From Obrimoposthia wandeli (lineage: Eukaryota), in assembly GCA_977020255.1 (NCBI GenBank), contig CDROCS010001033.1, positions 62,001 through 126,000 on the forward strand: 64,000 bases of DNA, read 5' to 3'. Both the position numbers and the translations under genes were made by a program. The notes under the pieces were generated by a model. It saw only the letters and a program-made list of their open reading frames with translations. It was not told the origin of the DNA and did not search any database. Shown piece by piece: positions 6,113-57,800 of this stretch. Every line of letters starts with the position of its first letter. The stretch's first letter is position 1.

Positions 6113-6151
6113 CACGAGTTATAAACAATATTTTATTTGCTTTATCATAAA

Positions 6152-7223: not shown

Positions 7224-7240
7224 ATTTTATTCTACTTTAT

Positions 7241-7328
7241 CTTTATTAATCAGTGTATTTATTAGTCAGTGTCTTTATTAGTTAGTGTCTTTATTAGTTA
7301 GTGTCTTTATTAGTTAGTGTCTTTATTA
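7241..7328 (+). repeat. 16-bp tandem repeat (ctttattagttagtgt) x about 5.5
   Basis: Directly visible between the DUSP-like stop and the next TATA box. Confidence 0.9.
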
Positions 7329-7387
7329 ACCAATCAGATTTCAGATGTATAGTATATAAACAGATTACTTTTTACTGCTTCTTCATT

Positions 7388-7672: not shown

Positions 7673-7715
7673 TTTTGTCTTATAAACATTATCCCGATAA
7701 TCTAATATTTTTAAT

Positions 7716-8789: not shown

Positions 8790-8886
8790 TTATAAACATA
8801 AATTCGATTCAAAAATATGAATTTATATATGGGATCACATCCATCTATTCCTAAATTCAATATAAAAATCAAATCGTCTTGCTGTA

Positions 8887-9405: not shown

Positions 9406-10105
9406 GTATACACACTCTGATACGAGACAGAATATTTCTGCCTTGTTTTGTTTCGGAGTTTATGTGTGCGGCAGGGAAGAGAAATTCACACACACACACC
9501 GAGACGAGACAAAAAATGTCACGTGATGCCTTTGTGTGATTTTCAATTTGCGAGTATTTGCAACTATTTGCAACATACATGCACGTGATGTCCTTTGTTC
9601 TTCTATGCTGATTTTCTCATGGGAACTTTCACATACTGAGAACATGAATAAAGCCTTTCAGGACAACCTGATGAGCACACAAATATGAGCTCATTCTTGA
9701 AGCTACTTCTTTGAGCTGGTTCTATTAAGGTAGTTCTTTGATTTTGTTATTTTAAAATAAATCTTTGATATGGTTTTTTGAAGGTTGTTCTTTGATTCTT
9801 TAATATGGTTATTCGAAGGAGGTTCTCTCAAAGTGGAAAGAAAGTAAAACCTTCGTGGGTTAACCTTCAGGGGTGGACTTAAAAAATTTAATTTTTCTAC
9901 TTTTCAAAGTTATATATATTAGGCTTGATCTGATCTTGGTCTGACATCCAAGAATTGACCTAAAGAAACTTATACTATATTATGAAAACTTACATAGATG
10001 TTAAACTGAAATTAACGATATATCAATCATGAATATTCTACAAATAAAATTATTACAGTCATTAAGAACTTAAGAGTCAATTAAGGCATTGATATTTCTA
10101 ATGTT
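9406..10105 (-). repeat. Long inverted repeat, arm B (partner 1774-2488)
   Basis: Near-exact reverse complement of arm A. Confidence 0.95.
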
Positions 10106-16830: not shown

Positions 16831-17297
16831 TAATGAAAAGAGGTCTCCTTATATACACAAACATCAGACTAACCCTCGTTTTGTCGTCCAATGATATCGG
16901 GTTATTCAAATAATTTATTTGAAAAATCTATAGGCTTTTCTCTATTTTTAACTACGTTTGAATGCGAGAATGTCATTGGATAAAAAAATATTTTATTCGA
17001 AAATAGTATTATTTTCTTCAGTTTTTGTTGACTGAGTTCAACGTCCAACAAGATCGTTTTAATCAAATAATTTATTTGAAAATTTATAGTATTTTCTTAA
17101 GTTTTTTGATGATGATTGAATACATGTATATCATTGGATTAAAAAATTATTAAAATTATTAATATTTTCTTGACTGTGCATATTTGGAGGGTATTATGTA
17201 AGAAAAACTAGATTTTTTTAAATGTATCTGAATATAAATACGTATAAGAAGAAAAAAAATCGCGTCCGCGGGGCTTGAAAAAAATTACTCGCGTATA

Positions 17298-17937
17298 ATA
17301 GTAATCAGACAAGTGTGGAAGCTAAAATCGTAAAGAATAACTATAAGCTAGAAACACATGTCGCTGATGACGTTCTGTATGTTGAAGAAAAACCTTTGCA
17401 AGATTCGAATAGTTCATACGCCAGTAACATGGACCTCAATGATATCAGTTTTGTGCCAGTAGACAGAGTCAACGAATTGTGCCAGTCTCACAATTTGTCA
17501 ATGAGTGATGAAGCTCACGACTACTTGAAGAGAGCCAGCACACAATTTCTGCATCACATATTGAGTCAGGCATTTATTGCTGCAAAAGCCAGAGATCTAG
17601 TCAATGAAGTCCTGCGTTCGGATAGACACAAGCTACGGATGATCCCGAATCCGGTAACATGCTAGTTACAAATTCACATACCGTTGACGGTATCACGAAC
17701 AGAACGTTGCAATCTTTAAGGGAATCAGGGACTACGCAAACATTGTTGCAAGAATTCATAAATATCAAACCAAAAATACCAGCGAAGATTATTGATCCGC
17801 CAAAGGAACAGAAACAAGTGAACCATAAAGTTCGTATCACCACCAAACAACTGATATTGGTAATACAAATGCACAAGGCCGCGGACCAGCTTACATGTCT
17901 GAGAACATTCAAGGACCTGCAGAACAAGATTGGATGA
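17298..17937 (+). pseudogene. TAF4-like histone-fold gene copy, 5'-truncated, with a 1-bp frameshift near 17660
   Basis: Near-identical to 33608-34248; aacatgct here versus aacattgcc in the intact copy. Confidence 0.8.
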
Positions 17938-27900: not shown

Positions 27901-30900
27901 TTGGCTTTAAAATTAGAAGAAAGCTTGCATAAGCGCTATACATCAAGAAGATTGAAGACGGCAATTGGATTAATCAAGTACTTGGAAGACCCTGATATAT
28001 TACATGATTTACATCCAAATGATACGGCCGATCTTTTTCATTTGCCTACGCCTAAAAATGTCAAGAAACTGGCAGTAGCAACATTCAAAAGATTGTATAC
28101 ATTAAAGGTGGAAACTCAAGAAGAAGAAAGGTTTCACGACTATATCGAGGTCTTTCACGATTCTTCAGCACATGAAATTACTGATCCATTGCTTAAAAAG
28201 TATGAAGATGAAGTTACTAATAAAAATAAAAGAGTCAAGCTATCTCAGCCTTCTGATGTCAATCTAATGAATAAAATGAAATTTTATGAGGCAACTAGAA
28301 AGCGAACAGAAAATATTGAATTGCTGTATCAGTCATTGCTGACTATTAAAGCCACTAGTGTAGAATCAGAACGGGCTTTCTCTGCGGCAGGATATTTTTT
28401 AACTAAGCTTCGTTCACAATTAGCTCCAAAGACATTGGATGCATTGAGCTGTATGCGCTGTTTTTATAATAACAAATAATGCTTGGTTATTAAATAATAA
28501 ATTTATTATTTAATAACCAAAGGAAATTATAGTTATTATTAGTCATTTTTCAAAGTTTGTTTTGTTGCATCAGGAATGATTTGTTTTTTAATTAACAAAT
28601 AATGCTTGGTTATTATTAGTCATTTTTCAAAGTTTGTTTTGTTGCATCAGGAATGATTTGTTTTTTAATTTATTATTTAATAACCAAAGGAAATTATAGT
28701 TTTTACTAGTCATTTTTCAAAGTTTGTTTTGTTTTTTAATTTTCTGTTTGAGTTCAACTTTTGTTCGAATATTCAATATAAAATTATAATGTGAAAACTA
28801 AGTATTTTTTGTGAACTCCTTATAAATACGCACCTAAAAACTACCTATACAGCAAAAAAATAAATAATTAGGAAAAACCGGTAAATACCGGTAATGATAT
28901 ATAGCTGTCGGTAATTTACCGGTAATTGAAAACACCGGTAATGTTTGACCCCTAGTTATAATCAATTATGTTTGTGTTTGAATATACAATTGTTTAAATA
29001 CATAAATGTTGACAATAGAAAACTCGCAGTTATTTAAAAATTTATCAAAATTGTAATTTTTTCAAACTTTTATATAGATTTGATGTTATTAAAAATGAAC
29101 ATAATCATTTAACACTAATATGCAAAAATATGTACAAGTGAGTTAATACTTAATGTTGGATAATTCTATTATTTTGAAAATGAATTTTATAATTATAAAC
29201 ATCAAATATTATATGTAAATGGATTTGTTTTAATAAATTATTTATTAAAGGCACTAAGTTTGAAATATTAAATGATTATTAATACATTAAAATCACATTT
29301 TTTAAAATTTTAAGTGTAATAAAATTACTGTTTCGAATATACATTTATATAAATACATCAATATAGATTATGTAAAACTTGCGGTAAGTTATATATTTAT
29401 TAAAATTGTTATTTTATTGCGAAGAGTTTAAATTTTTCTTTAATTTTATTTCAATAAATTGTACTTTAATATTTTATTTTAAAAATGCGTTGTATAATTT
29501 TTTTTTCATTTTTTGTTTAAAAATAATTTGTATAAATACATCAAAAGAAGCAATGAAATCCGTACACTAAGTTAAATATTTACCCAAAATTGGGAAGTCT
29601 TTTATGAGTTTAGGAAGAGTTTATATTAAATTTTATGTAATTACCTTTTTTAAAAAGGTTTGTTATTAAATTAAAAATATGTACAAGTGAGTTAATACTT
29701 AATGTTGGATAATTCTATTATTATTACCACAATTTTGTATTTTTCGTTCTATTGACCTGTGTATTTATCCGTTTTTTTACATTTTATTGCGAGTATAAAA
29801 TCTAACTGCAGACCTGTGAACGACACAAGTTAATTGAACACAAAACTTCAGGCCACAAATAGACACAATTTTATTTCTTTATACAACCTCGAATTGACAT
29901 ACAAATAGTAACAATTTTAGTGAATTATAATTTTGGTGAAATATAATTATCTATAACACGCTTTATTGTAACATTACTGAATGGAGAGTTTGAAGACGAA
30001 AAGAATCTCGAATTTATCCACCGAACAAAAGACACAATTTCCTAGAATTGTGAAACTAGAGAAGACACAATTGCGGAGGTTTCTACAAAAATACCGTAGG
30101 AGCGATTAACTATTAGCATGAAATAGTTGTATTACAAAACAAAATCGACATGGTAATCCAGACTCATCACGGTCCTAAGTTCCCAACTGCGCTACATTTA
30201 GTATAAAAATAAGACAAAACGAGATCCATCCGAAAATCATCCAAAATTATTTATTTATAGTTTTATATGTGCCTGCAGTGAAATTGTCAACAAATGGGTT
30301 AGCAAAAATACATAAGCCAAATATAGTTTTAGACAATTTTCCAAATTTTGGATAGTGAATAATCCTGGAACAATGCTTGTGATGTATAGAGCTGCAATAA
30401 AATATTATTAGCGGTGACGCCTGTTAATTTGATTTTTGCATTGGCAACGTGTTTATTTTAGCAGCATAAGCAGCAAATGATTTACCAATGAGGCCTATAA
30501 ATTTTTTAGATTCTAACAAAAGCATATGATGCGGTATTCACTACATCGTCTATATGAAGAGAAATAATATAGATGGATGAACATTGAACAAACATTTGCA
30601 GCAATGTTCATGGGTAAATAATAATTTTACTACAATAAGAATATGAATAACTATATGAAAAATTATTTTAAAAAATCGAAGGTGTGGAGGAAAAACCCAG
30701 CAAGAAGATAGAACCTCGGCTGTGAATATTGTATCGAAAGTTAGATTGTTATAGAAATTAACTTTTTTTCATTTTCTTCCGAATGCTTTTGTTAGGGTTA
30801 GGATTTATTAAAAAAATAGAAAAAATAGAACCCTGAAACCAATGTTAAAGAGAAAAAAATAAATAAATACAAATTTTAATTAAAATAAAATCGAATGTAA

Positions 30901-33900
30901 TAAAATTAGAATAATTTTAGGACCTTGAGAGTTCATGTTTGTTGTGTAAGTGTTTAAAGAGAGTTTAAATTATTAGAAAGCCCCCAGAAGCTGGTATGAT
31001 TTAAGAGAGATTTGCACAACTGCGCGCATGTCTGTAACTCAAAGATTCATTACGGCAAGACCGAGAATACAAAGTAGCTGCAAATCGATCTACTGTTGAC
31101 TTATGTAATACATATATTTCTGATATCTCTCGACCAGGTTCGTTTTCGATTGTCGATGTAATGTTGATTGAATTTTATGGACGAGTTTGATTTCATTAGT
31201 ACATACTTTTAAGGTAGTAAATACCGTATGAAAGTAACTTGGTTAGTTGACAATGACAATAAATAAAACCACTATAGGTAGCTTTAGTAGCAATTACAGT
31301 TTTAAAGCATCTTTGCAATTAATGAACTATAATGTTCATATTTTACTTTCTTAAAATAAACATATTTGTAACAAATCTATTATATTTTTATGTATACGTT
31401 TATCTTCAAAATTTTCAGCATACCAATATTATTTATAAATGTATAACTTATTTTCGTAAATCTTAGATAATTAAACTCCCGCCTAATTTATGGAACAAAT
31501 TGAAAAGAATGTACGTACGTTGAAGGTTACTTAAAATTAAAAAGTAACCTCAATAGAAAGCACATAATTACATAGAATATTATTTAAGAATTTCGACAGG
31601 AAACATTGTATTTAGTAATATCTAAAAACGATGTAGACTGGGTGTTTCTGAAGCGGTTAAAGATAGTCATTGTGGCAATATTGACTTAAAAATAAGAAAG
31701 ATTAAAAAACTGAACACTTGGCTTGAGTATAATAGAAACATATCTTCATAATACAGGTATCTCATCTGAAATTAGTTCTTCAGAAGAATTTCGAATTAAT
31801 AACAATTTTATTAGTGTTCTTGAATCTGATAATAATGTGCAAAATAGAATATTGAAAGTTGATACTGATCATTTATTTGTGGAATCCGTTCTAAAACATT
31901 TTAATAATATGAGTATGAATTATTTCATTCAAAAATATAGGAGTAGTGAAATTAAGAAGTCATGAAAAACTTATGAAATTTTCATCTTCCTTGAAAATGC
32001 TACTTAAATAAAGTGACGGCGCAACTATGATTCCTGTGTCTTAGAATGAGAAATACTGCTTCGGCATAAAATCTCAAATCATCAAAATGTATGTATATGA
32101 ATTTTTGCTCTAGTTTCTGCATTTGTTCTATTGCATACATTTTGTGTTGCTATTTTAATAATTTGGGGTTTATGGACGCCGCTGAAGCACACCAGATTTA
32201 AGCATTCTCACATAGAATTATAACACGACGTTAGATAATTTTTAACATTGTCTATGAAACGCTGGTTTTGCTTGAACCACTAAACCCTATTTTGAGCTCT
32301 AACTGTTCTCGAAATAAACTTGCTCTATTCCTCTTAATCCCAAAGTTGTACACAGCCTCTGCAATTGACTGTACAGTAGTTATATTTGACTACATTTGAT
32401 GAATACCTTAAGAGGCATCAGACCCCATTCATCAACAAAACTATTTGGGTTCCTGCCAACATTACTAACACAAAATGATTCTACACTTCGAAACCTTGAC
32501 AATTATCAAGAAACTCAATACAAATATACAACTCTTCCACGGTTGCAGCTCTTATAGTCCATCAACTCATAAACACACACACACAAAAATGAATCAACAA
32601 TGGTCAATTGGCCAATGACAAACACTTTAAAGTGCAAACACAAAACATTCGGCTTCAATTGGCCAATTTTTATTGACGTAATCACATGATTCAGAAATTT
32701 GCATAATCCCTTTTTTATGATCATAATTTGTAGTTTAGAGTACAGATGATTAATTCTGTTCTAATTTGAACACTAACTGTTTCGTCAACTGTTTCGCGCA
32801 TTCACCTGAGACTATTAACGAACTTTATAAATTGGTTTCTTGTATTGTCGAAAGGTTCTTGGCAACATTAAACTTGACATATACTGCATAAGTAAAAAAA
32901 TTAAGATTTAGTTGTTTTTGTAGCCAACTTTCAAAACTTGGAGAATTGTTAAAAGTGAAACATTACGTTCAATTTTCTAGATGATGCAGTTGAAGACTTT
33001 TCAATTATCTCTCGAACAAATTTAATAACTTTTCTTTAAAAAGACAATCTATATGTGTATATAACGATTCTCTCACAAATGTTTTCTTATTAGAATAATT
33101 GATGGTTGATATTTGTTCCTCTGTTCGACCATTCCCAATTTAATGTCAATGTTAATCGAATTTATTTTTATTACATTTATGCAAATATTTCAAGTTAAAC
33201 TCAATAACTTCTTTTAAATAACCTTAATCATTCATTAAATTTAAAATATAAACTTCAATTTGTACATTATTTTTTATGACTTGTAATTGAATAAAAAGAA
33301 TAGTTTATTTAAACAAAAATATGCACAACTTTCAAATATTTTTATTTAAAATATTTTAGAGATTTTTTTACAATTTCGAAAAAGTAAAATATTTTTTGTT
33401 TGTTATTAATAATTTTACTAAAATACTAATGTAAAATAAAACTCAAGAATAAACAAATGAATATAAATCAAAATCGTGAAAAGAAAGTGAGTTATGTGAA
33501 AGGATCTGTCTCGTAAAATATTAAAAAACCAAAACGACCAAGTCCATCCAGAGATATGGAATGTGTTCCGATAAAGAAAATCAAGTTATCTTCTTATCAA
33601 AGTGTTGATAGTAATCAGACAAGTGTGGAAGCTAAAATCGTAAAGAATAACTATAAGCTAGAAACACATGTCGCTGATGACGTTCTGTATGTTGAAGAAA
33701 AACCTTTGCAAGATTCGAATAGTTCATACGCCAGTAACATGGACCTCAATGATATCAGTTTCGTACCAGTAGACAGAGTCAACGAATTGTGCCGGTCTCA
33801 CAATTTGTCAATGAGTGATGAAGCTCACGACTACTTGAAGAGAGCCAGCACACAATTTCTGCATCACATATTGAGTCAGGCATTTATTGCAGCAAAAGCC

Positions 33901-36900
33901 AGAGATCTAGCCAATGAAGTCCTGCGTTCGGATAGACACAAGCTACGGATGATCCCGAATCCGGGAACATTGCCAGTTACAAATTCACAAACCGTTGAGG
34001 GTATCACGAACAGAACATTGCAATCTTTAAGGGAATCAGGGACTACACAAACATTGTTGCAAGAATTCAAAAATATCAAGTCAAAAATACCAGCGAAGAT
34101 TATTGATCCGCCAAAGGAACAGAAACAAGTGAACCATAAAGTTCGTATCACCGCCAAACAACTGATATTGGTAATACAAATGCACAAGGCCGCGGACCAG
34201 CTTACATGTCTGAGAACATTCAAGGACCTGCAGAACAAGATTGGATGACTCTTCCAAGTTACAATATCCTCTAAAACATTATTATATTCTACTACGTTGT
34301 ATTACTTATTTATTTATCTTAATTACGTATTTAGTAACCTCTCATCATATTTTGTGATAAAAAATGCAAATCATTGATCCAAACACAACGAATTATTGAT
34401 GTAACAATTCTTTTGATGACTTCTTAATATTAATTCATTAAACTTCCACTCATTCAATATTTTTAGCATCTTTTAAAAATACGATTTTTATGTGTCTACC
34501 AATTCTCCCATAAATGTTTTCTTATTAGAATCACTGATGGTTGTACTTCAAAAATCAATTGTGAATATCACTTGTAAGAACCAAAATTCATTATCAAAGA
34601 AAATTATTCCATTTTCAGAAATATCAATTGATCAAAACTAGATCTGTACAATTGGATTTCAATTGAATATCAATATCAAGATAGAATGATACAAGATCGG
34701 ACCAAGCGGATTGGTGATTACTGTTCGGAAAATATTCGATGGATTTAATAAATAAACGTTATATATTTCGTATCTTTATTTTCTCGATTATAATTATTTA
34801 TTAATATTTAATAAAAAAGAAGCCCATTAAGGTTATGAATATAATGATAGAAATATTGATATTTTTTATCAAATGATTTATGAAACGATACACAGAAATT
34901 ATAGTAATGAATAGTAATTTAAATATATATACCTTAAAAAATTGTGAGAAACTACGCGATCTTTAGAAATATCATAATATCAATAATCAATGGCTACTTG
35001 ATAGAATGGATGTAGATGAATAAATAAAATACTTATGATGAATTACGTACATTATTGTTAAGTTTTAATAATCAAGGTTATATAGAAATTTTACTACATG
35101 TGTAATGATATAGATGAAATATGTGTATTATTGCTAATTTTGGTATAAGATTATTTGAGAGGGTATATAAGATAAGAACCTGTTATAATTTAAAGAATTG
35201 CATGTGGTCTTGTATAAGAGATGATAATTAATTTAACTTCCAAAACATCTAAATAATACATTCTTTTTCTAAATTTTCTTTACTATTACTACATTACTCA
35301 ACTTTATACTTCAAATCTCCATAACATATTATATTAGAAATATCATTAGGAGCTTCAATGATCAGCGACTTTATGCTGGTTGATGAGCCTGAAAGAACTA
35401 CTGAGACTGGACGTTGATAATAATATTTATAATTTCGGTGTTTCAATAATCAATATGTATCTACGGTAATATATGAATTTAAGGTATTTCGAAATTTCTC
35501 TGAAAGTTTTTGATAGAAGATTCATGAAACGATAGACAGAGAAATGATAGTAATGGATAGATATACTTAGATTTGTGTTTACTTATAAAATTTCGATTAT
35601 TGTTCTTTAAAACATTAACTTTATCATCTAACTCAAATATTATAATAAAACTCTTAATATCTTAGTTTTACAATGTTAACTAAAAGTTTATTTTATTGGT
35701 TAAACAACTACAACGTAGAATAAAACTCTTAATATCTTAGTTTTACAATGTTAACAACTAAAAGTTTATTTTATTGGTTAAACAACTACAACGTAGAATA
35801 TTTTTAAATAACTGCAACGTAGTTGAATTCAACAAATCAAAATTAATTTAGAAATTGATATATAAGATATATTGGAAATAAATATTAATTGTAAAGACTT
35901 AAAAATATAAAAAGTGACATCAAACACCTATAAAATACGAATGCTTAAGTGGAAAACATAGTATCGTGATTATTGTGATTGGCTATCTTATTTTTTAATC
36001 AAATTCTTGTTAAGTTAGTATTGATATCAGATTTATTTAGTGGACAGTTTTATTATTAAGATATTCGACTAACGTTACACTTTGGGCTCATAAAATTATA
36101 AATGCTGCTACAAGACCTTACTGTTAATACATCTCGGTACATATCATTCTGTAGTAATTTTAGCAAGTTTTAAGTGTGCTAAGTTAAATATAGTTATTTT
36201 AGCGAAATCGGTAGAATATTCATTCCGAGTTAACTCCCTTGTGAAATTCGTGTGCCCCCTAACATATAGATTAGCCGAGGGACAATCCACGTGACAATAT
36301 TCCACGTGCTGACAGATTCAGATGAGTATTGTCTACGTCGATTGGTCCCGTCTCTGTTTTATCGATATTCGATCTTGATATTGCTAGTCCCTGCCGACAT
36401 AAAAAGCTAACTCAACTGATAAACGTCCCACTCTGCGTTACATCATATCACACTAGCTTTGGGGTCCTACTAGCTATTATGTGAACACAACTCCTTGAAC
36501 ACACCACAAAACAACAAGACACAAAACCTTTAGATTTGAGACTAGAATTAAGTAGGATACGAACAGGTAGGCCACGTCCCTCTGTAAGCCCTATCGTTAC
36601 AGAACTCACGTTGGGGGCCTCCCTACGAGGATCTAATAGAAGAGTTTCAATTAGAAACCACAAATCATTATAAATTTATTTTCTAATTTTAAAATCTGAT
36701 TATATAAATATGTTAAAATTATGGAATTAAAAAAAATAAAAATTTTACTATTTATATTAAAAGATTTTACCTTGAAATTAAAAATAAATTTAAAATAAAA
36801 ATATAAAAATAAAGTTAGAAACAAAAAAAAATAAATAAGGATATTGGAAGGTCATGGGGAATTGGAAAAGTATAAATAGAAGCTGTGTAAAAATATCCCC

Positions 36901-42900: not shown

Positions 42901-44981
42901 AATTTAATTCAAGCCTTAAGATGTGAACGAGTGTTAAGTATAAAAAATATATATAAATAAATATAAATCTATATATATTTAACTATATTTTATAAATAAA
43001 ATAAAATAAATAAATAAACTTTCTCACTATTTTGAACGAGTCCCATAAAAACAGTTTCGAAGCTTTGTATTTACAGAGTTTAAGGCGATGCTTACAATGA
43101 ACTAAATGACTGGTCCTGGCCAAAAAGCCTATCTAATTAGTATATACCTGGAGTATAGCAAACCCTGCAATAACTAATGTATTTTTATAGCAAACCGTTC
43201 TAATGGTACTTGGAATAAAATTGCTTTGTATATAGTGGTCATGCACTCAAAACGTTGATGTTGAAATGTTAAACACGAGTCAATTAAATTATGGTTAACA
43301 AGTCGAGGCCAAAAACTACTTTTAATTATTCTACAACAATCTTAAACTGATTTCAAGAAATTATTGACAAAGGTGTCCAAATTATTGATGAAATGTTCAA
43401 GTATAAAATAATTTTATTCCTAAAAAAGTGTTTAGTTTTAATGACATCTTGACATTTATATAATTTTTAGAAATCGAAGTTCCATGCTCTATAACATTGA
43501 GTGAGAGATATGAAGTCTTACATCACCTGTGCTTATCTGTGGACTGAGAAAATGCTTTTATGTACTAAATTTTTGCCGCTTGCGATGTGTATCCTATTTT
43601 CATATTTGCCTCACTTTTTATAAATAACTATTTCACAATTACAGTACTCTCGCCACACCCGTAGGAAAATGCTTGTAATAAAATATTAATTTTGCATTTC
43701 AATATGTTGTCTAACCTTTGATTTCATACACAAATAGTCTTGATGTACTTTATGACCACCATTGCAACTGGCGAGAAAAGGTTCTCAGTGGTGAAACAAA
43801 TAAATAATGTCCTCAGATCAACGAAATGCCGAAAGGGACTAGCTGTTATATCAAATGAAAACAATATGCTCCGCAATTTGCAATTCACAGATGTTTTGCA
43901 GATATTTGTTACCAATAAATTGTGTAAAGTAAATATGTGAATTATACTTTACTTACCATATAATAATGTTTATGCTTTTATTTATGTTGTATTGCACTGA
44001 CAAACTAATCAATAGAAATTCACAATATGTCCAAGAATAGATTGTATTAAACAATTATTGTTAAGAGTTATTTGAATTTTCGGCTATAGAAGAACAGTAA
44101 ACAGTCGGTAAACTGAAGAAATCTCTATATACTTATAATTTAATAACATGTTTAATTCAACATTTTATACAAAATAAGTAGCTGTATTGTAATAGCTTTA
44201 AAAAACGTTTAGTCAAAATACCGATTTAGGAATATTGATATCATATTCTCATAACTTGATTACCAAGCAATTAAGTGGTATTTCTAATATTTACTTTAGT
44301 TATAGACACTAAATTATGATCTTGGTCCCTTAGTCCTTGATATAGCGGCATTATACAGATATATTATTTTAGTAAGTAAATTAAGCACATTTTAACATAT
44401 TTCATAATTACTAACAGTATACAATTTTTAGAACAATAAACCGTGAACGTGCCTGCTCAAGCAGAATGTTATTGAATTTTAATTAATTACTTTCCGATGC
44501 GCTGCATCATTTGACAGGCCGCAGAGGCGGTGCCATTCACACGCAGCTGCGAGCCAGCTTCCAAAATCAGCTGCATTCCCCGTTCAATGTTTCCTTGATT
44601 CAGACAGATATCTGCTGCTGACTCTTGTGCCTTGGCAGCGTAGAATATCGAATGGTTTTTCTCGTGTAATTCTGAGACCTGCCAACATCGCGTTACAGTC
44701 AGTCAAGTATTTATAACACTAAATAAATCGATACATACTAAATAATTTCAACATACTTTCATTAAAATATTAATAGCATTTTCTAAATCCCCGCCAGCTT
44801 TAAAAGAATCAACAGCTGAACTGTAATAACTAATTGCACTATCGTAATCAGGCGACCATTTCATAAAAGACGTTTTTAAACTAAATATAATAATTTTCAA
44901 TTTGATTATTAAACACAAAAACCTTTTTTCAGCCTTTTTAACAAAATTATTTGCTTCTTCTATTTTGTTTCCACTTGACAT
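21957..44981 (-). CDS. NAPG: Gamma-soluble NSF attachment protein; exons 44981-44923, 44880-44757, 44678-44491, 42695-42390, 40828-40705, 22073-21957
   Basis: The spliced frame is continuous with GT-AG junctions: MSSGNKIEE..KAEKSLKTSFMKWSPDYDSA..FYAAKAQESA..NGTASAA..ILHRDNDIVAA..LRQLLQAYN..FLYLEND|YAKLARDL, colinear with human gamma-SNAP. Confidence 0.92.
23440..24300 (+). pseudogene. Mariner/Tc1-type transposase remnant, interrupted
   Basis: GISHTTVHKILRNDLNIKPYKI*FYQALYDEDFADRH (HTH linker) and FLIPCL..VFQNDGA (second catalytic Asp). Confidence 0.6.
24598..25370 (+). repeat. Diverged direct repeat pair (about 24598-24850, 25115-25370)
   Basis: Shared core gaacttatgatataccgacattctacataaaaa..ttttgtgaaactaaat. 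Confidence 0.7.
26250..28954 (+). mobile_element. hAT DNA transposon, 2705 bp, antisense inside the NAPG last intron
   Basis: Perfect 8-bp TSD GTTATAAT (26242-26249, 28955-28962). Imperfect TIRs TAGTGAGTAAACA / TAGGGGTCAAACA; ACCGGTAA subterminal repeats. Confidence 0.93.
26600..28479 (+). pseudogene. hAT transposase (BED finger, DDE core, dimerisation domain) with a stop at 27041-27043 and a frameshift near 27795
   Basis: VWQYF..CLQC..STSGLKAH, FSLTIDEYTS, VTTDGAS, CLAHACHL, TRWNST, ATSVESERAFS. Confidence 0.92.
29125..29722 (+). repeat. About 48-bp exact direct repeat (29125-29172, 29674-29722)
   Basis: aaaaatatgtacaagtgagttaatacttaatgttggataattctattatt occurs twice. Confidence 0.85.
30790..30988 (+). 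mobile_element. Internally deleted mini-copy of the solo-LTR family
   Basis: Starts TGTTAGGGTTAGGATTTA like 52695 and ends gagtttaaattattagaaagcccccaga like the family 3' end. No TSD. Confidence 0.55.
33556..34248 (+). CDS. Intronless TAF4-like histone-fold protein (230 aa), nested antisense in the NAPG intron
   Basis: DISFV..RVNELCRSHNL..DEAHDYLKRASTQFLHHIL..AAKAR resembles the TAF4 alpha1-alpha2 helices. After a long linker, KVRITAKQLILVIQ resembles the TAF4 C-terminal RVNLRDLIFCLE helix. Confidence 0.6.
   Translation: MECVPIKKIKLSSYQSVDSNQTSVEAKIVKNNYKLETHVADDVLYVEEKPLQDSNSSYASNMDLNDISFVPVDRVNELCRSHNLSMSDEAHDYLKRASTQFLHHILSQAFIAAKARDLANEVLRSDRHKLRMIPNPGTLPVTNSQTVEGITNRTLQSLRESGTTQTLLQEFKNIKSKIPAKIIDPPKEQKQVNHKVRITAKQLILVIQMHKAADQLTCLRTFKDLQNKIG
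35645..35795 (+). repeat. About 75-bp tandem duplication
   Basis: aataaaactcttaatatcttagttttacaatgttaac...caactacaacgtag occurs twice. Confidence 0.9.
36170..36662 (+). mobile_element. 3' part of an LTR of the same family (5' end not located)
   Basis: Carries the conserved 3' core and ends GAAACCACA; 36170-36260 matches 63917-64000. Confidence 0.7.
36711..38195 (+). mobile_element. Solo LTR, 1485 bp
   Basis: TGTTA...GAAACCCCAACA with a 4-bp TSD AATA on both sides; conserved 3' core. Confidence 0.8.
38395..39050 (+). pseudogene. Ty3/Gypsy pol remnant (RNase H and integrase pieces)
   Basis: ITRKEMPVIVHFTDYFKHHLYGKRFRLRTDHKAL, TDALF, CENCQERK, IDFCGSL; many lesions. Confidence 0.8.
39414..40445 (+). 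mobile_element. Tc1-like transposon remnant
   Basis: EISDDLECNKSTVSRVIQKYAETGS (HTH) and ESLPNHIECVIASKGGHCRY (C-terminus). Right TIR ...aactttttgtcgcgtactg followed by TA. Confidence 0.8.
42932..43033 (+). repeat. 102-bp AT-rich direct repeat, one mismatch (second copy 45158-45259)
   Basis: Directly visible; one copy is in NAPG intron 3, the other just upstream of the NAPG ATG. Confidence 0.9.
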
Positions 44982-46418
44982 ATCAAAAAAAGTATTATGC
45001 TATTTAAAATTAAAAGTCTGTAGTTTCTCATAAATAAACGTATTTAGAAAAATGTTTACCAAGAATAAAAAATAAATTAGAAGAAATAAATAAAAAAACA
45101 AATTAACTAATAGATTTCATACAAGATATTATAGATATTAAAGAAATTATAATATATTGTTAAGTATAAAAAATATATATAAATAAATATAAATCTATAT
45201 ATATTTAACTATATTTTATAAATAAAATAAAATAAATAAATAAAGTTTCTCACTATTTTAAACAAATATGCATTCATTTGAAAATTTATATCTAATGTAC
45301 AAAAATTAAATTAAAACAGTTATATACTTTTTGTTCATTTTCATTTGTATTTTACTTTTTTAAACATTATATATATTTACAATATTATTTTTTATTAATC
45401 ATATTTTAAAATTATTATTTGTATCTGTTTGACAATGTGAAAAAATCTTATGTACTATATAATGTATAATCTTACTCAAAATACTATTAAAATGGGGCAC
45501 TAAAAATTTTAACGCTTAAGTTGTTTTAATGAAATAATCTTCACATTATATAAATACTGAAACCTTTTAACTTCCTTAACATTAAATCTTTATAAAACCA
45601 ATTTTCGAGTAAAGAATTTAGCAAATTTATTAGCAAATTAGTCAAATGGATTACAAAATATAAGACAGAACTGATACATGGCCATGTAATTTCTTCATTT
45701 TTTGCCACTTCTAATAATTTGTCCCGTTTTTGTTAAAGATTCCTGTCAAGATTAGACAATGAAAATAAAAGAAAATAATTGTCATATAAGATCTACAATT
45801 AGTGATTCAATTCCTAAAAACAAAGAAAAAAATATAATTATATGGTTCTTTAATTTTTTAACATGCAGTTTTTATGTATAATAAAAGATATAACCCAATC
45901 GTATCAGAGTAGCAAAAATGATTCCACAGAAAGTCTCAACAAAATCGTACATCTAACAAGTGTAATAGTTATTAGGGTTTTTAAACTAATAGTTATTTTA
46001 TATGCGGCGACGCTAAGTTGTGCTAGATGTCAAAGAGTGAATTTGACGTAAATGTGAGTAAAAAAACTATAATGATGAATGGGGCAATTTGTCTTAGAAG
46101 TAAGTGTTCCAGTACACCTAAACTGCTTTTGGGAACGCGACGGAAAAGATAATAAATATTTATAAATTTGATGCCCTATGCCTTATTAACATAAAAATAA
46201 AACTGCAGCTTTTGAGTTAATAATTGTTTTATAAATATGTATTTTGACTGAACTCGAAACTGAACAATTTTGGTGATTCAGTCACTGTACCAGATCAAAT
46301 TACTCAACTGAGCAGGTTTTGAAAATTGAAACAACCTGTCAGAACAGAATTAGTTGAGATCGGCTGCTACTGCACTCCACTGAGGCTGATTACTCCCAAC
46401 TGAAACAACAACAAAACA

Positions 46419-47215
46419 TTGCCGATACTAGATCACTTTCAAAACAAAGATCAAACAAATGATCATAAGGCTGAAACCATCGCGAAGGTTTTAGTCGAAA
46501 AAATTATTTTTACTTTCGGTGCACCCCGAAAATTATTAACCGACAAAGGTCCTGAATTTATAAATAATGTATTAGCGTCAATAGCTGAAATTTTTCACAT
46601 AAAAAAGATCAATACAACACCATATCACCCTCAAACCGACGGATTAGTAGAAAGATTTAATAGAACCCTCGAAGATATGATGGGATCATACACAAACAAC
46701 AACCAAACAGATTGGGATTTACATATACCTCCATGCCTTTTTGCCTTTTTGCATATAGAACATCAGTACATGCATCTACAGGAGAAACATCTTTTTACCT
46801 TATGTGCCTCAGAGATCTTCAAATGCCTATTGACCTAACATTACTACAACCTACTACACAGTACCTAGAAATACCTGAATACAAAATAGAAATAAGAGAA
46901 AGAATAAAACTAGCATTCGAAAAAGCTAAATTATTTTTAAAAAACATACAAGAAAATTTCAAAGAATATTATGATAGAAGAACTAAGCCATCAAATATAA
47001 AAATTGGAAGTAAAGTAATGATTCACAATCCACAAATCTATGTAGAATTATCACACAAATTATCAAAACCATACAAAGGACCATATACAGTCATTAGTAC
47101 CAATGGAACTAACATAACAGCTAAACTCGACAATGAACCAAAATCAAAAGAAATAAGAACACATATGTCGAGAAATACCAGAGGAAAATACAAAAGTAAA
47201 AAGTCACAAATATAA
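46419..47215 (+). pseudogene. Ty3/Gypsy integrase core and C-terminus (5'-truncated, frameshifted by an 8-bp duplication)
   Basis: LLTDKGPEF, TTPYHPQTDGLVERFNRTL, YRTSVHASTGETSF, KLSKPYKGPY; gccttttt duplicated at 46735-46750. Confidence 0.92.
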
Positions 47216-47321
47216 CTTAAGATCAACTAACAATAATACTGTTCTACAAATGTTAACTATAAAAAACTCACAAAAACAAAACAAGACTAAATTGAGTCAT
47301 CAAACTAAAAATACAATAAAA

Positions 47322-48584
47322 ATGTCAATAAAAGAAATATGTAAAATAATGATGTTATTAATAATATATTTTACAGTAAAAAGTAACATAATAAAAGTAA
47401 ATGCTATAAACCTGAATGAAAATCAATTAATAGTAAAAGACGAAATAAATAGATACGACTCACAAACACATCTCATAAAAAATTTTGGACTTATTACAAT
47501 AATACCTGAAATCACATCAATAAAGTTGAAAATATCACTCTTTACAAAAAAATTAGGAAGAATTCAAATAATACAATCTGAAAAAAATCAAATAATAAAT
47601 ATTTACAAAATCGAATCAAAAAATTATATAATACCATTTTTAAGAACAGAAACACAATACAAAATAAGAGTTAAGTCGAATTTAAAGAATATAACACTTT
47701 ATGAAAGAATTATAGAAACTCACTTATACTTAACTTCAATATTAAAAACGACAGCAAAATATATAACAAAACATCAAATCATGATAAATTGGGAATTTCA
47801 ACTTAAAATAGATAATTTTGATAAAACCCTCATTAGAATTAGATATAGAGGATATAATGATCATTTTTGGAAAGACGCAGAAAAACAATTAGAAAAAACA
47901 CAAATCAGAACAAATATCACTATAAAAAATATAAGATATCCAGAAAAAATAATAATGGATAATAGAGAATATGTAATTACTAACAAACGAATAATGTATA
48001 GACTATGGGGACAACAATTTGAGACTTGTAAAAATCTAACAAACTTAAGGATTTTTGGAAATAAAATATCCAAATTATACCAACCTACGATTTTTTGTGG
48101 CCAATGGTCAGTAATTACAATTAAGAAATATATCAAAGAAACAACCATAAAACAAATACCACATACTACAACATTCACAACAAAGACTTATGAAATTACA
48201 AATCAAAGTAATATCACAGAAAATAAAACAATTAACAAACAATTAAAAACAACAAAAACAATACCCTATAAATCATTGAATGAAAGTCTAAAAATACACT
48301 TTAGTAAACAAAAATACTCAAAAAATATAAATAACATGGAAATTTTTATAACAATCATAATAATTGAAATCTTTACATTAATCATAAAAATAACATGGAA
48401 GGTTATTAAAGTAAAACATAACACAATTTTCAAAAAACTTTATCGGACTAAATATTGTGAACCACCTGGCCCATTTATGACATCCATCATACCTAGCTCT
48501 TCAAATTCATCTAACATATCAATAAATACAATAATTGAGAACAATAAACAGAAAATAGAAAAAATCTTTATAAAATTGTCATAA
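47322..48584 (+). CDS. Env-position type I membrane protein: signal peptide, two FN3-like domains, Thr-rich stalk, TM helix, cytoplasmic tail
   Basis: Signal MSIKEICKIMMLLIIYFTV; FN3 hallmarks YIIPFLRTETQYKIRVKS and YITKHQIMINWE..IRIRYR..W; TM MEIFITIIIIEIFTLIIKITW. Starts about 100 bp after the integrase stop on the same strand. Confidence 0.65.
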   Translation: MSIKEICKIMMLLIIYFTVKSNIIKVNAINLNENQLIVKDEINRYDSQTHLIKNFGLITIIPEITSIKLKISLFTKKLGRIQIIQSEKNQIINIYKIESKNYIIPFLRTETQYKIRVKSNLKNITLYERIIETHLYLTSILKTTAKYITKHQIMINWEFQLKIDNFDKTLIRIRYRGYNDHFWKDAEKQLEKTQIRTNITIKNIRYPEKIIMDNREYVITNKRIMYRLWGQQFETCKNLTNLRIFGNKISKLYQPTIFCGQWSVITIKKYIKETTIKQIPHTTTFTTKTYEITNQSNITENKTINKQLKTTKTIPYKSLNESLKIHFSKQKYSKNINNMEIFITIIIIEIFTLIIKITWKVIKVKHNTIFKKLYRTKYCEPPGPFMTSIIPSSSNSSNISINTIIENNKQKIEKIFIKLS

Positions 48585-48727
48585 GAAATACATGAATTGA
48601 AATACTAAAATAAAAACTAATCATAAAATAAAGTAATTATAATGTAGATAAAGGAAAGTGCGTATGTGTTTAGTTTAAATAGAAGATAGTAAAAAATAAA
48701 CTTAAAAACTTATTAACATTTTAGAAA

Positions 48728-49036
48728 ATGAGAAATTCAAAATTAGTACAAAATAATAGAATAAGATATAAGAGACAGAAGAAATGGGAAAATAAATTGT
48801 TGATAGAGAATATAAATCTGAGATCGCATTTAAAAGACAAGGAAATGGAATGTGAGCGAATGAATAATGCTTTTGACGTTGCAATTGAAAGACTAGAACA
48901 TAGCCAAACAAATCAGGAATTATTAGTACGACGACTCAGAGAAGCATTAAACTCTCTTGTATCGTTGAGATCAGTAATTAATCGTTTGATGGGATTTCAA
49001 CCGGGAGAAAGTGATGATTCCGGGTGTGAAAATTAG
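48728..49036 (+). CDS. 102-aa coiled-coil ORF, unknown function
   Basis: Intact ORF with a heptad-like charged/hydrophobic pattern and an acidic end. Confidence 0.5.
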   Translation: MRNSKLVQNNRIRYKRQKKWENKLLIENINLRSHLKDKEMECERMNNAFDVAIERLEHSQTNQELLVRRLREALNSLVSLRSVINRLMGFQPGESDDSGCEN

Positions 49037-49462
49037 TAAAATCCCCAGTGAGTAAATTAAAAAATAAAAGAAAATTGAGAATGAGTTTGGGCTTATGGCA
49101 TGTTTTTGGAGAGGAAATGTGTTTATGAATGGGTATTAATATTCATTAACTTTAGTTGAAATAGTAATAATAAAATTAAGAATAGGTAAAAAATGAATAT
49201 ATTAGTATAGATATGTATATATTGATATTGATAACACCAGTAATAAGAATATATATTAAAGAATGAAAAATTATATCTTGTTTATATACCTTGTTTGTTT
49301 GAACTTGTTACATGAAAAACTAAAATGATTTACAGACTTTTGATTAACAAAAAAGAGACAAATAAACTGACAAGAACATTTCATTTGATAGACATTTGAC
49401 AATTTTTTATATTTGCATGTAAAATCAACAATTTTTTTTTACTATATCTGTATATCCTACAG

Positions 49463-50590
49463 ATGAAATCAACAGACTCAAACCCACACCTGAACTGGAA
49501 AGTTGCTCCGCGGGGGAGGGGAGAGAAAACTATAAAGTTCGTCAAGCAAAGACCTGAAATGGCTTGCATGGCAAAATTCCTTTACGGAAAAATAAGGCAA
49601 TTCGAAACTAGAACGTTTAATGGAAAAAACGGTTCCAAAACGTTTGCAAATCAAACCCAATTACCCAATAAAATAAAATTGAGAGATACTCCCCGACGAA
49701 GCCTATTACTGAATAGCGTACAGGATAGGCCAACTGAACAAGGATTGTTAGAAATAATGGAGTTCCTACCAACATGCACAGATATTGAAATCCACGTGGC
49801 AAAAGGCCGTGGATTTCTACAACACAAAAGGCAAAAGGATTTTTCTATTTTATTATTACAAAATCATTCCTACCGATTGAAGAAACACCAGATAACACCC
49901 GACCTAAAAATCCGCTTATCTGGTGGAAACAATGTACTTTTCTTCGAGCAGAACATCAAACCAGAACCCGTTAAGATGTGTTACATCCAATTATCACCCA
50001 GTATTCCCCAAATGTTTTTTGTTTATTGTGAGATGGTAATAACAATGGAAAAACAGCCAACATTGGCAAGCGTCTCTATAATGAACAGGGAAGGAAAAGT
50101 CATCCTTAATACTTTATGTACCAGTAGAGAAAGAATTAGAAATTATGTAGGACGAATAACGGGATTAAGTGAGTACACATTAAAAAACCAATCGGACTCT
50201 AGGGATGTAATTACACATGTACAACAAATCCTTAGAGGAAATATACTGGTAGGAACGGGAATTACGAATGATTTAAAAGTACTAAGCATGAAAAAGTCAG
50301 ATTTCGTCACTTTAATAGATCTAGGAGCCACCAAGACCATTCAACAAGATTTCAATCAACAAACCAAAGTTGGATTGAAAAGAATGATTCTATATTATTT
50401 CAAACAGAACATACAGAAAAAGACCCATTCTAGTTTAGAAGATACGAAATGGACTAGAGAAATATACATCCGTAAAGCAAGCGAAATAAATGCTGAACTT
50501 GGGTCGATTTTCCCCTCACCTCGCGAAAGCATAGCTAATCTGCCTGAGGTCATAGACCTTTGTTCCTCTGATTCTGAGGACAGCCTTTAG
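49463..50590 (+). CDS. RRM-like + DEDDh (REX4/ISG20-like) 3'-5' exonuclease with C-terminal SIM-like motif
   Basis: VYCEMV..LASVSIMN..ITGL..ILVG..NDLKVL..LK..IQKKTHSSLED; upstream RSLLLNSV..KGRGFLQH; C-terminal EVIDLCSSDSED. Intronless, 375 aa. Confidence 0.85.
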   Translation: MKSTDSNPHLNWKVAPRGRGEKTIKFVKQRPEMACMAKFLYGKIRQFETRTFNGKNGSKTFANQTQLPNKIKLRDTPRRSLLLNSVQDRPTEQGLLEIMEFLPTCTDIEIHVAKGRGFLQHKRQKDFSILLLQNHSYRLKKHQITPDLKIRLSGGNNVLFFEQNIKPEPVKMCYIQLSPSIPQMFFVYCEMVITMEKQPTLASVSIMNREGKVILNTLCTSRERIRNYVGRITGLSEYTLKNQSDSRDVITHVQQILRGNILVGTGITNDLKVLSMKKSDFVTLIDLGATKTIQQDFNQQTKVGLKRMILYYFKQNIQKKTHSSLEDTKWTREIYIRKASEINAELGSIFPSPRESIANLPEVIDLCSSDSEDSL

Positions 50591-50890
50591 AGTAGTAAGA
50601 TATTTTACTATGCATCATTCATTAAATGTCTTATTGCTTGTGGATGTGAAAAGTATAAAATCAATGTTTTATTTTTTATCTTTGCATTAACAGACTAGAG
50701 TGATGTTGTTTTTAAAAAATCATTTTAGACAGACATACTTTAAGGGATATTCATTCTTCAATTTGTTGCAAACGTCAGAGGTCTGACTTGGTTTTTCCCC
50801 ATAGGATTGTTGGGTTATTAATTAATAAAATAATTAATAATTTAGTCAATTAAAATTGACATTTAAAATTGATCTAAAATGCCCACAATT

Positions 50891-51251
50891 AGGGAGGAAT
50901 GCCATTTCAGCCTCCGACGGGGTGGTCCCGTTTCGCCCTGCCGGGCTCGTCAGAGAGGCGGCAGAAAAATATTGATTGCGGAGACCTTTCCGCCCAGTTA
51001 TCTCTCTCTACTGTCCCGAGGGTCGCCTTTTGAAAATTCCCGGTTGCACGCGTGTGGGCATGTATAGCCGGGAATTACCAGATGCCACCAGAATTACCAG
51101 ATGCCAACCGCTAGCAGTGCAGTCGTCTCCCTCAGACCGACTTCTGCAACGGATTCCGATCTGTTTTGACGTCGTCATGTCATTAAATCTCATTGTGTCT
51201 CCCAAGAAGCCGAATTAGATGTCCCTATCCAGCTTTCTCTGTGCCACATCA
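50891..51251 (+). other. Candidate polypurine tract (agggaggaa) plus 3' LTR (TG...CA)
   Basis: Purine run directly before TG at 50900, then a GC-rich block with ATTAAA near 51182 and a CA end at 51251. No 5' partner in the window to confirm it. Confidence 0.35.
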
Positions 51252-52694
51252 GGGACGGAATTGTGTTTTTGCTTTTGTGCACTTTGTTGCCGCACAGGAT
51301 TATCACATGTTCCAGTTACGACCGGTCTTCTCCATCATCATCAAAGTGTTAACAATAAATTGCACTTTCATCCTCTAGTAACAACTTCCACAGTGGCCTG
51401 TCTCCCTGTTCTTCCTTCATCCCACATCACCATCACCTTGATACAGCCCACAAACACAATCTCTCTCCCACTGTGATGGCATTGGCAATTGTAAAAGTCA
51501 ACTCGATTACAGTTTTCTCTTCTGCCCATTCTACGCTAAAAATCACTAACACAGGAAACACAAATTGGTCTGATAAAGTGACTGTTATCCATCTCCATCC
51601 TGCAACTGCTGCCCTCTGTGCATCTGTGCCACATCAGTGACGGAATTGTGTTTTTGTTTTTGTGCACTTTGTGTAAGTATGTGTGCACGTTTTGCACCGA
51701 TTCTCGGTCTCCAATTTAATAACTTATCAACAATTTATGCCCTCCAATTTAGAATAATCAAATTCTTCTCTACCGCGAATTTGGTAAGAATTTGAAGCGA
51801 CTGATACTATTGGAAAAAATACAATTTAATAACTTATTAACAATTTATGCCTTCCAATTTGGAATAATCAAATACTTATCTACCATGTTTTTCATTACAG
51901 ATGCACTTCACTCTCAATACTTATCTCTATTGTTTGTGTGTTCGAGATCACAACTGTCTTCCGAGTCGAGTTAAACAGATGGGGAGGGACAAAAACATAG
52001 GTCCAAATTGAAGCTTAACCTGGGCTAAGTTCGTAAATTATTAGAACCAAATGCTATTAAAATACCTAACAATCATTTTATTTTTACAAATTTTATTTTA
52101 GTTGAATCTGTGCGTTTTCATCAAGCTGAATAGTGCATTTCTCTCGTTTTCCAGAATACTTGTCGATGTTTAATAGTAATCGTCAACTTTTTAATGTTTT
52201 GATTTTTTTTATAGATGTCATTATTTTCCTAAATAATATGTTTATTTGCGTTTTAATTCTAATTTGTGCATCTGCCACTTAACAATTTTAGCAACAATAC
52301 ACAGTGCTGATTTAAGAATATCTGAAAATTTCATAGAAAGTTTTCGAATATGATCATTTCTACAAAACATTTTTAACCAGCGAAGAATTTATTTTAACCA
52401 TATGGTGAAGTTCCAAATGAACAATTAAAATTGAATGGTTAAAATTAAACGTAAAGACAAAAAATAATAATATTTTAAATGCTAAATTAATGAAAAAGTA
52501 AAAAAGGTTAATAAATATTAAAATTATTTAACATAAAGTGACCTTACATGTTGACTACATTATTTAGTTACCAGGTAGAGAGAAAACATAGAGAATACTT
52601 ATAGACTTATGTACTTATAGACTCACTGGGAGAATCGTTAACTATTAAAAATCACTACTATAGAGAAAAATATACAGTGAAAAAATTATGATAG

Positions 52695-54854: not shown

Positions 54855-57800
54855 ATGATTGGCGACAAAGAAGACATTCGAGGACTGTTATCATATTTCT
54901 TTGGTAGATTTAGAATTGATATTTAACTTTGATTTATTTAAAGCTTATGAACAGTCAACTCCGTTTATTGAAAAGTTTAACAAGGAAGACCCAGCAAATA
55001 TTGAATACGATGAAATAAAATTGGCCATAGTTCTGTCGTTGGAGAACTTTCTTCGAAGACCGCATTTAAATGAATTGAAATTCCCAGCATCGTTTTCTAA
55101 TGTTGAGAAAAAACTTGTTCAAATAGCTGCCAAGAAAATGGGTCTTAAGTATCAATTAACAAAGTTAAGTTTCTTTGTAATTTTGGTAGATTAATTATTT
55201 AACATTTGGTGATATTCAAAAGAATAAATTTTATTCAAACTTCGACAATATAAATATATTAAGCATTGCTTGTTATATCCTTTGTGGCCTAAAATTGTTT
55301 GTAGATATTTTAATTTAATATCTTTTTATAAAAATAATTTTGCTTTTAATTGTAGAATATAAATTTAACCTTTTTTTAGAAATAATAAAACATCATAGCA
55401 AAACCTAATTGTTAAATGTTGAAAGCTTTGTATATAATTTCACAAGGACAAAAAAATTCTATTTTTTCATATGCTTTATATAAGCTTGGGGTGCTATACT
55501 GAGACTCCTAGAATGTATTGAAACGAGTTGTTCCGATACCGCCCAATATGGCTCGTTATAAGTGGATTTGTTATTAACAGCAGATCTTTAAGAAACTATA
55601 CAAATCTAAAGTTGATTTACATTTCTTTCAATCTTAATTATATTTTCTGAAAACTATTCTTTTACATTGTAGACACTTACATTGATCTTTCTATAATTGT
55701 AGCCATATTTGATCCTAATTTTATACACACTTCAATCTTAATGTGGACATTCAAATTTCCCAGAAGACTCAATAGTCAGTCAACTTCATCTTCGAGTGGA
55801 CCCTCAACACAAATGGTGACAACTCCAACATTTGCTATTGTTGTTTACAAGCCTAATCTCTCCACCATTGTTTCACGAGCTTTAAAACTTCAGTTAACGT
55901 GGAACAGCAGACGAGCTATAGTTCAACTTCTCGGCTCCAATCCAGTTACAATGAAAGAAAGACAAGAATTCCAACAATTGCAATGCAAGCCTGATAAAGG
56001 TGCTTTAAATTTTGTGTATTCTAAGCATTTAAAAAAGGATCAATTAAAAAAAATCAGAAAATAATATATTATTTTTACATTAACCTATTTAATAAGATTT
56101 TCAAAATTTCCCTAATACCATTATTGAAAAATCGATTAAATTTTTAAAATTTTTATTAGTATTTTCAAAAAAGAATCTATGACATGAAAGAATAAATTGT
56201 AAAATTCCAAAATGCATAAGAAACAAACAAAAATAGTAAAAAATATGAACTTTTAAATGGATGATACAGTCTATTCTGGCTAATAAATGGCAGATTCACA
56301 CATGAAATAAAGTATGTAAAATATCTTCAACAATGTATAGTAAAATTTAAAAAATATTGAACAAATAAAAGTTAAAAGGTTATAAACAGTTGAATGATAA
56401 ATTCACAAGCATTACTGAGTTGGTTACACAATCTTCAGTTGGTAATCATTCACTGACTCTGCAGAGGGCAGAGATGACCGTCACCGCACCACTACTGGAA
56501 AGTTGATGGGCGCAGTGCCACAAGTACCCCAGAGTCTCTCACAGATGGCTCCGCTACCACAGCCAATGTGCTCCACCTCAGCAGCGGCACTGCACATAGT
56601 TGGAGGCGGGGATGGACTCGTCAGTCACCAGACCAGAGCTTCTCCGGAGCCACAGCAGCACGCCGTGTGGGCTGTCAGGGCGGAGATAATTGAGTCAGTC
56701 AGGAACAATCCCATCGTGATCGTGTTCGGGGCTGCAGGCTGCGGCAAGACCACTCAGATTGCCCAGGTAAGTGCTACGTGCTCCACATTTCCATAAAAAG
56801 GACCCTCACTGATTTATGCCAATCTTTTTTTATCTCAGATGATAATGCAAGACTGTGGACGCAGCGGAAAGGCGTGTCGCATGATCTGCACCCAGCCATA
56901 CGGACTGTGTGCACATGCAAACGCGCAATACGTTACTCAGAACCGTGATGAGAATATTGGTCAGACCGTGGGCTACCAAATTCGTCTTGAAAGCAAGTTA
57001 GTTCATATTTATTTTATGACTTGTGTAGTATGGTGTAATGTTATGCAGTTTGATGCAGTATATTATAATGTGGGACAATGTAGTGCAATGTGATAGTGAA
57101 CTTGCAGAGTGTCTCCACGAACGCTACTGACATACTGCACTAATGAAGTGTTGTTGCGCACGTTGTACGGCGACCGTGGCTTCCTTGCCGGCACGACACA
57201 CATCCTGGTGGATGAGTTGCAGCAGCGGTGTCGCCACGCGGACTTGTTGGTGGCTCTGCTGCGGTCGTTAACATCGACTGGCGGTTCTGGGACACAACAG
57301 CACTTACGCGTGGTGCTGCTCGTCACTTGTCCGGCCCTGCCATACGACCTGGTACCCACTGGTCCAGGTACTGCAGGTGGGAGGCCGTCACCCCGCACCT
57401 CCTACTTCCACCGACACGGGCACCAGCACCAGCAACAACAGGGGGGCAGCAGTCCGGTCAGAGAAGGCAGCAGCAGCAAACTTGTGCGAGTTCTCAGACA
57501 CTACTTTGACTACTGTCCCACCGTTTATGGTGAGTGAGTCTCCTCTTTTGCCTATTCACTCCTGACCATTCCACATCCATCAGTGAGGAAGCCCGTCCAG
57601 GACATAGAGGAGCTCTTCTTGGAGGACGTTCTACACATGGTTAACATCGCTGTCGACTCCCAGGACTCGGATTTTTCTGGTGAGTCGCAAACACTGCTAA
57701 ACTTGTTCACTGATCTACATATTTATTCTTAACTGCAATATCATGAAATCCCTACTATAGACAGTTCATTGTCCCACACACAATTCAGATCCCTTGCAGA

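Follow-up and report, generated by a model that had tools for sequence, protein, structure and literature searches.

A DEDDh exonuclease gene and an antisense hammerhead motif in an envelope-carrying Gypsy element of Obrimoposthia wandeli

Results

The nuclease gene and its host element

We analyzed a 64,000-nucleotide stretch of the Obrimoposthia wandeli genome (assembly GCA_977020255.1, contig CDROCS010001033.1, positions 62,001 to 126,000 of the forward strand; hereafter the window). A real open reading frame (ORF) of 375 codons at 49463-50590 on the plus strand matches Pfam RNase_T (E = 1.1e-6). It comes last among the genes of a Gypsy long terminal repeat (LTR) element that has a high copy number, a glycoprotein B (gB)-type envelope, and the gene order gag-env-pol. 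The features of this locus are shown in Table 1.

Table 1. Features of the nuclease gene and of the element copy that carries it (window positions)
Feature	Positions	Strand	Remarks
3' pol remnant (integrase), two frames	46454..47215	+	Pfam rve
Membrane-protein-like ORF, one hydrophobic helix near the C-terminus	47250..48584	+	Hydropathy peak 2.3
102-aa ORF separating polyprotein and nuclease gene, by eye coiled-coil-like	48728..49036	+	
Predicted splice acceptor, pyrimidine tract and CAG immediately 5' of the ATG	49430..49462	+	From sequence
Accessory gene, 375 aa: beta-helix domain, DEDDh exonuclease, disordered tail	49463..50590	+	
Double-stranded beta-helix domain, aa 31-168, AlkB/cupin-like, without conserved metal triad	49553..49966	+	
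ISG20/REX4-type DEDDh 3'-5' exonuclease domain, aa 183-346	50009..50500	+	
Codon 188, first catalytic position	50024..50026	+	Tyr only in this copy
SIM-like motif and acidic/Ser tract, aa 362-373, in predicted disordered tail	50546..50581	+	
3' LTR, TG start, CA end	50808..51899	+	
Antisense hammerhead ribozyme motif, type I	50910..50959	-	Predicted cut 50916/50915, 108 nt inside the LTR

The source genome has at least 109 scored matches to the gene, out of 5,805 candidates, inside LTR elements, and searches of the genome with relatives as queries gave further sets of copies. The DNA upstream of 20 copies encodes, in this order, gag, a Monjiviricetes/gB-type fusion protein, protease, reverse transcriptase (RT), and RNase H, followed by integrase; the order of the pol domains and the gB-type env between gag and pol are those of the Ty3/Gypsy GAG-ENV-POL gB type. 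These copies bear out the claim of an earlier sequence-only reading of this DNA that the gene is element-encoded. Both LTRs lay within the fetched DNA for 7 of the 12 copies that were extended, and the LTRs of a pair were 91-99% alike. The ends are TG...CA, and 4-bp target duplications were readable in six copies with both LTRs. An assignment to Troyka was rejected on these features, since the available description of that element (PMC12440569) gives CG...CG ends, a 3-bp duplication, and no env. We hold the anatomy of the element and its gene, as described here, with high confidence.

The window's copy is 5'-truncated, with its first position near 46454 in a frameshifted part of the integrase, and it has an LTR at its 3' end. 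The alignments of other copies also begin at 46454, yet those copies extend upstream into RT, protease, env, and gag.

Four alleles of the nuclease gene (A to D) occur in the genome, with proteins approximately 93, 62, 59, and 43% identical to that of the window. Elements with allele B match the window at 87-100% identity immediately before the gene, at 55-75% within it, and at about 90% after it, and for an element with allele D the identity in pol is 91-97%. Because these elements are far more alike outside the gene than within it, the nuclease cassette has been swapped between elements. The putative splice acceptor before the gene is conserved in alleles A, B, and C; its pyrimidine tract and the CAG directly before the ATG suggest that the gene may be expressed through a spliced subgenomic mRNA.

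The frame of the membrane-protein-like ORF is continuous with pol in another copy (a 725-aa frame in locus L032). The polyproteins of loci L088 and L091 end in tails that resemble this ORF by eye, and BLAST gave no match. Allele D elements and L088 have a small ORF at the corresponding position. These 3' modules, a second membrane-protein-like region after the integrase and the small coiled-coil-like ORF (window 47250-49036, L088, L091), seem to have been exchanged between subfamilies.

Distribution and phylogeny

The combination of beta-helix and DEDDh domains was present in 26 public proteins. Two long loci among five from metagenomes have the nuclease gene behind gag-env-pol polyproteins of 3,012 and 3,207 aa, whose RT is 60% identical to that of the window family. 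The 91 nuclease domains of a quick tree comprised 30 from proteins with the beta-helix and 61 of the remaining matches. The 30 beta-helix proteins and five other rows, four of them short and possibly fragments, were split from 56 cellular-type proteins, including annotated REX4, with an SH-aLRT (approximate likelihood-ratio test) value of 98. The gene is thus old and lineage-wide in envelope-carrying Gypsy elements.

The host's own REX4 is split by an intron and lies on another contig (C325). Together with the separate branch and the copies in LTR elements, this rejects an ordinary host REX4 ortholog, as the sequence-only reading had expected.

The nuclease domain and its first catalytic residue

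The best sequence matches among solved structures were ISG20, ISG20L2, and plant SDN1, and the modelled domain has the DnaQ-like fold of a DEDDh exonuclease. With the RNase_T match, this upholds the earlier assignment to the REX4/ISG20 type. In the window copy motif I reads VYCEMV, with Tyr at position 188, so the catalytic set is incomplete; E190, D270, H322, and D327 are kept, as had been noticed from the sequence. Over 30 copies, the residues of the set D-x-E, D, H-x4-D were conserved, in order, in 29/30, 30/30, 30/30, 27/30, and 30/30, and four of the five were invariant in all 26 distant relatives.

Position 188 is Asp in all 29 other close copies. In 74 locus rows covering all alleles, some of them overlapping, there were 71 Asp, one Asn, and two Tyr, both of which are the window copy. 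In four runs, all from a single sample and not independent of the assembly, another base made up 99.5-100% of the contig depth at position 50024. The window copy has nine private changes, Tyr188 among them, and eight alter an amino acid. Alongside this count, the 30 copies gave 158 to 70 for singletons and 21 to 20 for variants found in at least three copies. These counts show that Tyr188 is private decay of a truncated copy after its insertion, on top of a gene under selection: dN/dS (nonsynonymous to synonymous rate ratio) between alleles was 0.05-0.15 where dS was unsaturated, which indicates purifying selection. With Asp188 elsewhere and this selection, the family is predicted to be a catalytically competent exonuclease. 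The idea of a nuclease-dead binder, which was to be checked by reading D or Y in other copies, fails for the same reasons, since the full catalytic set of five is retained in the family; the window copy is a decayed relic and gives no information on a dead form.

The N-terminal domain

A confident structure model showed a double-stranded beta-helix, with AlkB-family proteins as nearest matches, fused to an ISG20-like DEDDh nuclease. The match to the AlkB-family beta-helix spans aa 13-168 and includes its core, and the profile of the domain is cupin-like. An RNA recognition motif (RRM), proposed earlier for this region, was rejected: the model is a beta-helix, hhalign gave 1.0%, and no Pfam RRM match was found in the window protein or in any of 26 relatives.

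The signature of AlkB and other 2-oxoglutarate (2OG)-Fe(II) oxygenases is an H-x-D/E...H iron triad and a 2OG-binding Arg. In an alignment of 31 sequences (not a superposition) the only near-invariant residues of the domain were Y41, P68, and H111; a single His was conserved, and neither an H-x-D/E nor a distal His or an Arg was. For this reason the domain is likely non-catalytic, judging from its sequence.

The C-terminal tail

The window protein ends in VIDLCSSDSEDSL. The sequence-only reading had seen here a PIAS-type SUMO-interacting motif (SIM); the SIM of PIAS1 is VIDLT (PMC4907222). The motif itself stands. In alleles A to C, VIDL[TC]SSDSED shows conservative changes only, whereas the preceding linker drifts; some copies have exactly VIDLT, and the [VI]-[VI]-D-L-T core, acidic/Ser tract, and disordered region of the PIAS type are all found. 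Its conservation does not extend to allele D or to most distant relatives, and alleles A and B share the tail DNA by exchange. The link to SUMO is therefore weak, and the tail is probably a local add-on.

An antisense hammerhead motif in the LTR

Read on the minus strand, 50959-50910 can fold as a type I hammerhead, with the CUGANGA and GAAA core, a UH cut site, three stems, and covariation. Among 18 variants selected as distinct, 99.6% of the cells pair, versus 33-52% in slid controls, and 5 of the 15 pairs change on both sides, spread over all three stems. Genome-wide, the core pattern had 4,653 exact matches and a control pattern had none. The motif occurred 63 times in 120 loci from the element searches versus once in 70 unrelated loci.

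The first 30 core sites were compared with the window's LTR: 20 align from the LTR start, one partly, and nine at the core only, the latter likely a divergent LTR type. At nine of the 30, the nuclease gene lies upstream, on the strand opposite to the ribozyme; the one match in the reverse arrangement came from a neighbouring copy.

Three short segments recur in most of 94 motifs: GCC preceding stem I (92 motifs), GGC within loop II (86), and UGA following stem I (91). This near-complete conservation suggests that the hammerhead may contain a small pseudoknot.

The LTRs of loci L053-L061 and L010-L048 are common only in the first ~155 nt, which include the hammerhead, and at their ends. The remaining parts differ wholly between these subfamilies and contain short tandem repeats.

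Other features of the window and assembly

Polinton/Maverick-like pieces were present at 336-9390 (A32 ATPase, BIR-RING apoptosis inhibitor, TBP-like protein, dual-specificity phosphatase, adenovirus pX-like protein, and integrase), mostly flanked by a pair of long inverted repeats (1774-2488 and 9406-10105). The plus strand also has a broken hAT transposase with a BED finger (26543-28479), a repeated element with a weak histone-fold ORF (17279-17937 and 33517-34248), and exon-like frames of a DExH helicase (56446-57537), which by eye we take to be YTHDC2-like. Direct repeats of 106 bp, 98% alike, lie 2.2 kb apart at 42932-43037 and 45158-45263. The assembly (G000 contigs) apparently includes bacterial contigs, with CRP-like and cupin proteins.

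Discussion

Relation to known systems

The nuclease shares the DEDDh fold and motifs of ISG20, ISG20L2, REXO4, and plant SDN1 (the last degrades small RNAs, going by its PDB name), and differs from them in its ~22-28% identity, its place in an element, its AlkB-like N-terminal domain, and its separate branch. That domain has the double-stranded beta-helix of AlkB-family oxygenases (Ofd2, ALKBH6) and the cupin-like profile, and departs from these oxygenases at the iron- and 2OG-binding positions. The RRM and the dead nuclease that headed the sequence-only reading were wrong, yet it pointed to a real and unusual accessory module; what it observed is partly confirmed and its interpretation partly supported.

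Nuclease cargo in LTR elements is already known. As far as the accessible text goes, the rotifer Juno and Vesta LTR elements and Terminons carry a DEDDy exonuclease as ORF3 (PMC5408684), which is also named as a known accessory domain (PMC6338049, in part). Like that ORF3, the gene described here follows the pol of an LTR retroelement, encodes a predicted 3'-5' exonuclease, and has intact catalytic residues in its family. Unlike the RNase D-like rotifer enzymes, it is a DEDDh nuclease of the ISG20/REX4 branch fused to a beta-helix domain, it stands alongside the envelope gene instead of replacing it, and it exists as several swappable alleles.

GAG-ENV-POL errantiviruses with a herpes simplex virus gB-type env are described from nematodes, bryozoans, and flatworms (PMC13524379). 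Going by the available descriptions, the element resembles these and the planarian Burro (PMC6431247) in its Gypsy pol, LTRs, many copies, and gB/mononegavirus-type fusion protein between gag and pol, the latter a likeness of gene order. The main text and seven supplements of the errantivirus survey name no exonuclease, cupin, or hammerhead.

In the portions available to us, the reported hosts of hammerheads are plant LTR retrozymes, which are non-autonomous, along with Penelope-like elements and animal retrozymes (PMC7229834; bioRxiv 10.64898/2026.07.22.740005). The motif described here likewise lies inside a terminal repeat and has the type I topology known in animals. Those hosts are non-autonomous or non-LTR; here the host is a coding, envelope-carrying Gypsy LTR element, and the motif is antisense to its genes. 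Titles and abstract openings gave no published beta-helix/DEDDh gene and no antisense hammerhead in a coding Gypsy LTR, although Repbase, subscription journals, Sacco et al. 2022, and preprint supplements may hold either.

Possible roles of the nuclease and the hammerhead

We propose, at a probability of roughly 0.4 for anatomy and mechanism taken jointly, that the ISG20-type exonuclease and the antisense LTR hammerhead destroy antisense RNA that feeds the silencing small RNAs of the host. In flies, PIWI-interacting RNA (piRNA) immunity to an envelope-carrying Gypsy element starts from antisense insertions in host transcripts (PMC13226689). The protein would be made from the spliced mRNA. A host transcript reading backward through the element would enter by the 3' LTR and, 108 nt short of the internal region, run into the hammerhead; once cut, its antisense coding part would lack a cap. 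The weakest steps are the following ones: the nuclease would clear the cut antisense RNA or the small RNAs, the beta-helix domain would act as a non-catalytic RNA grip, and the SIM tail of three alleles would bring the protein to SUMO-rich silencing sites. A selected, allele-swapping nuclease beside a hammerhead fits a conflict over silencing. A role against small-RNA silencing is plausible, and the antisense hammerhead is the better hint of it.

Several observations weigh against this proposal. The link between nuclease and ribozyme is one of neighbourhood alone. DEDDh enzymes are not expected to start from a 2',3'-cyclic phosphate. This is the end that hammerhead products carry, according to the accessible part of PMC7229834. 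No Rfam hammerhead match was obtained at E<=1, the hammerhead fold lies 1.1 kcal/mol above the minimum for the 50-mer, and the 81-mer has a z of -1.2. No hammerhead was found in the five metagenome loci, though their LTRs possibly lie outside the contigs. The beta-helix match comes from a model of the whole protein. The SIM, absent from allele D, is not family-wide: eight of 27 distant relatives are almost tail-less, and the 19 remaining tails had the strict motif in two (0.6 expected) and the loose one in six (3.9 expected). The rotifer DEDDy ORF did not clearly track copy number in the available account (PMC5408684).

A replication aid is somewhat improbable, and it is the alternative that survives best. 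The nuclease would trim 3' ends of the element's RNA, tRNA primer, or cDNA, and the hammerhead would do a separate job, such as releasing unit-length antisense RNA between LTRs or stopping an LTR antisense promoter. The gene is old and lineage-wide, whereas the hammerhead and the SIM were seen only in this genome; ISG20L2 processes structured RNA, according to a PDB title, and the same role is proposed for the rotifer ORF3s (PMC5408684, in part). However, most Gypsy elements replicate without such a gene, and alleles that are only 43-62% alike yet swap on a single backbone are a poor match for a core replication partner.

ISG20, the closest solved relative, is an antiviral nuclease. A restriction factor, which would either attack competing elements or viruses at the level of their RNA or cDNA or limit the element's own copies, would agree with this and with the multi-allelic cassette, and cellular DEDDh enzymes restrict LINE-1 (PMC10123124, in the text available). 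We consider it clearly unlikely; self-limitation in particular fits poorly because the family is extremely abundant.

The motif of alleles A to C could instead make SIM-mediated binding at silencing complexes the main job, with the nuclease domain as an RNA-binding scaffold. Such a decoy is very improbable given the selection on all five catalytic residues and the distribution of the motif described above. Neutral drift of a gene captured from the host, or identity with the host's ordinary REX4, would explain the REX4-like domain and is refuted by a dN/dS of about 0.1, the tree, and the separate REX4 on C325.

The fullest form of the proposal, a two-part device against piRNA traps in which a hammerhead in each LTR cuts backward transcripts and a swappable nuclease, SIM-steered in some alleles, destroys the remains or the small RNAs, is unlikely as a whole. 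If true, it would be an animal retroelement armed against the initiating step of piRNA immunity. Whether animal transposons actively resist piRNA silencing has long been an open question, for which concrete candidates are few, and the family offers two that are small and separately testable, a 50-nt ribozyme positioned for antisense read-through and a selected, allele-swapping nuclease. Whatever their role, the fusion of an AlkB-like beta-helix to an ISG20-like DEDDh domain is the mark of an old clade of Gypsy elements that carry an envelope, and the motif adds a hammerhead in a coding LTR element.
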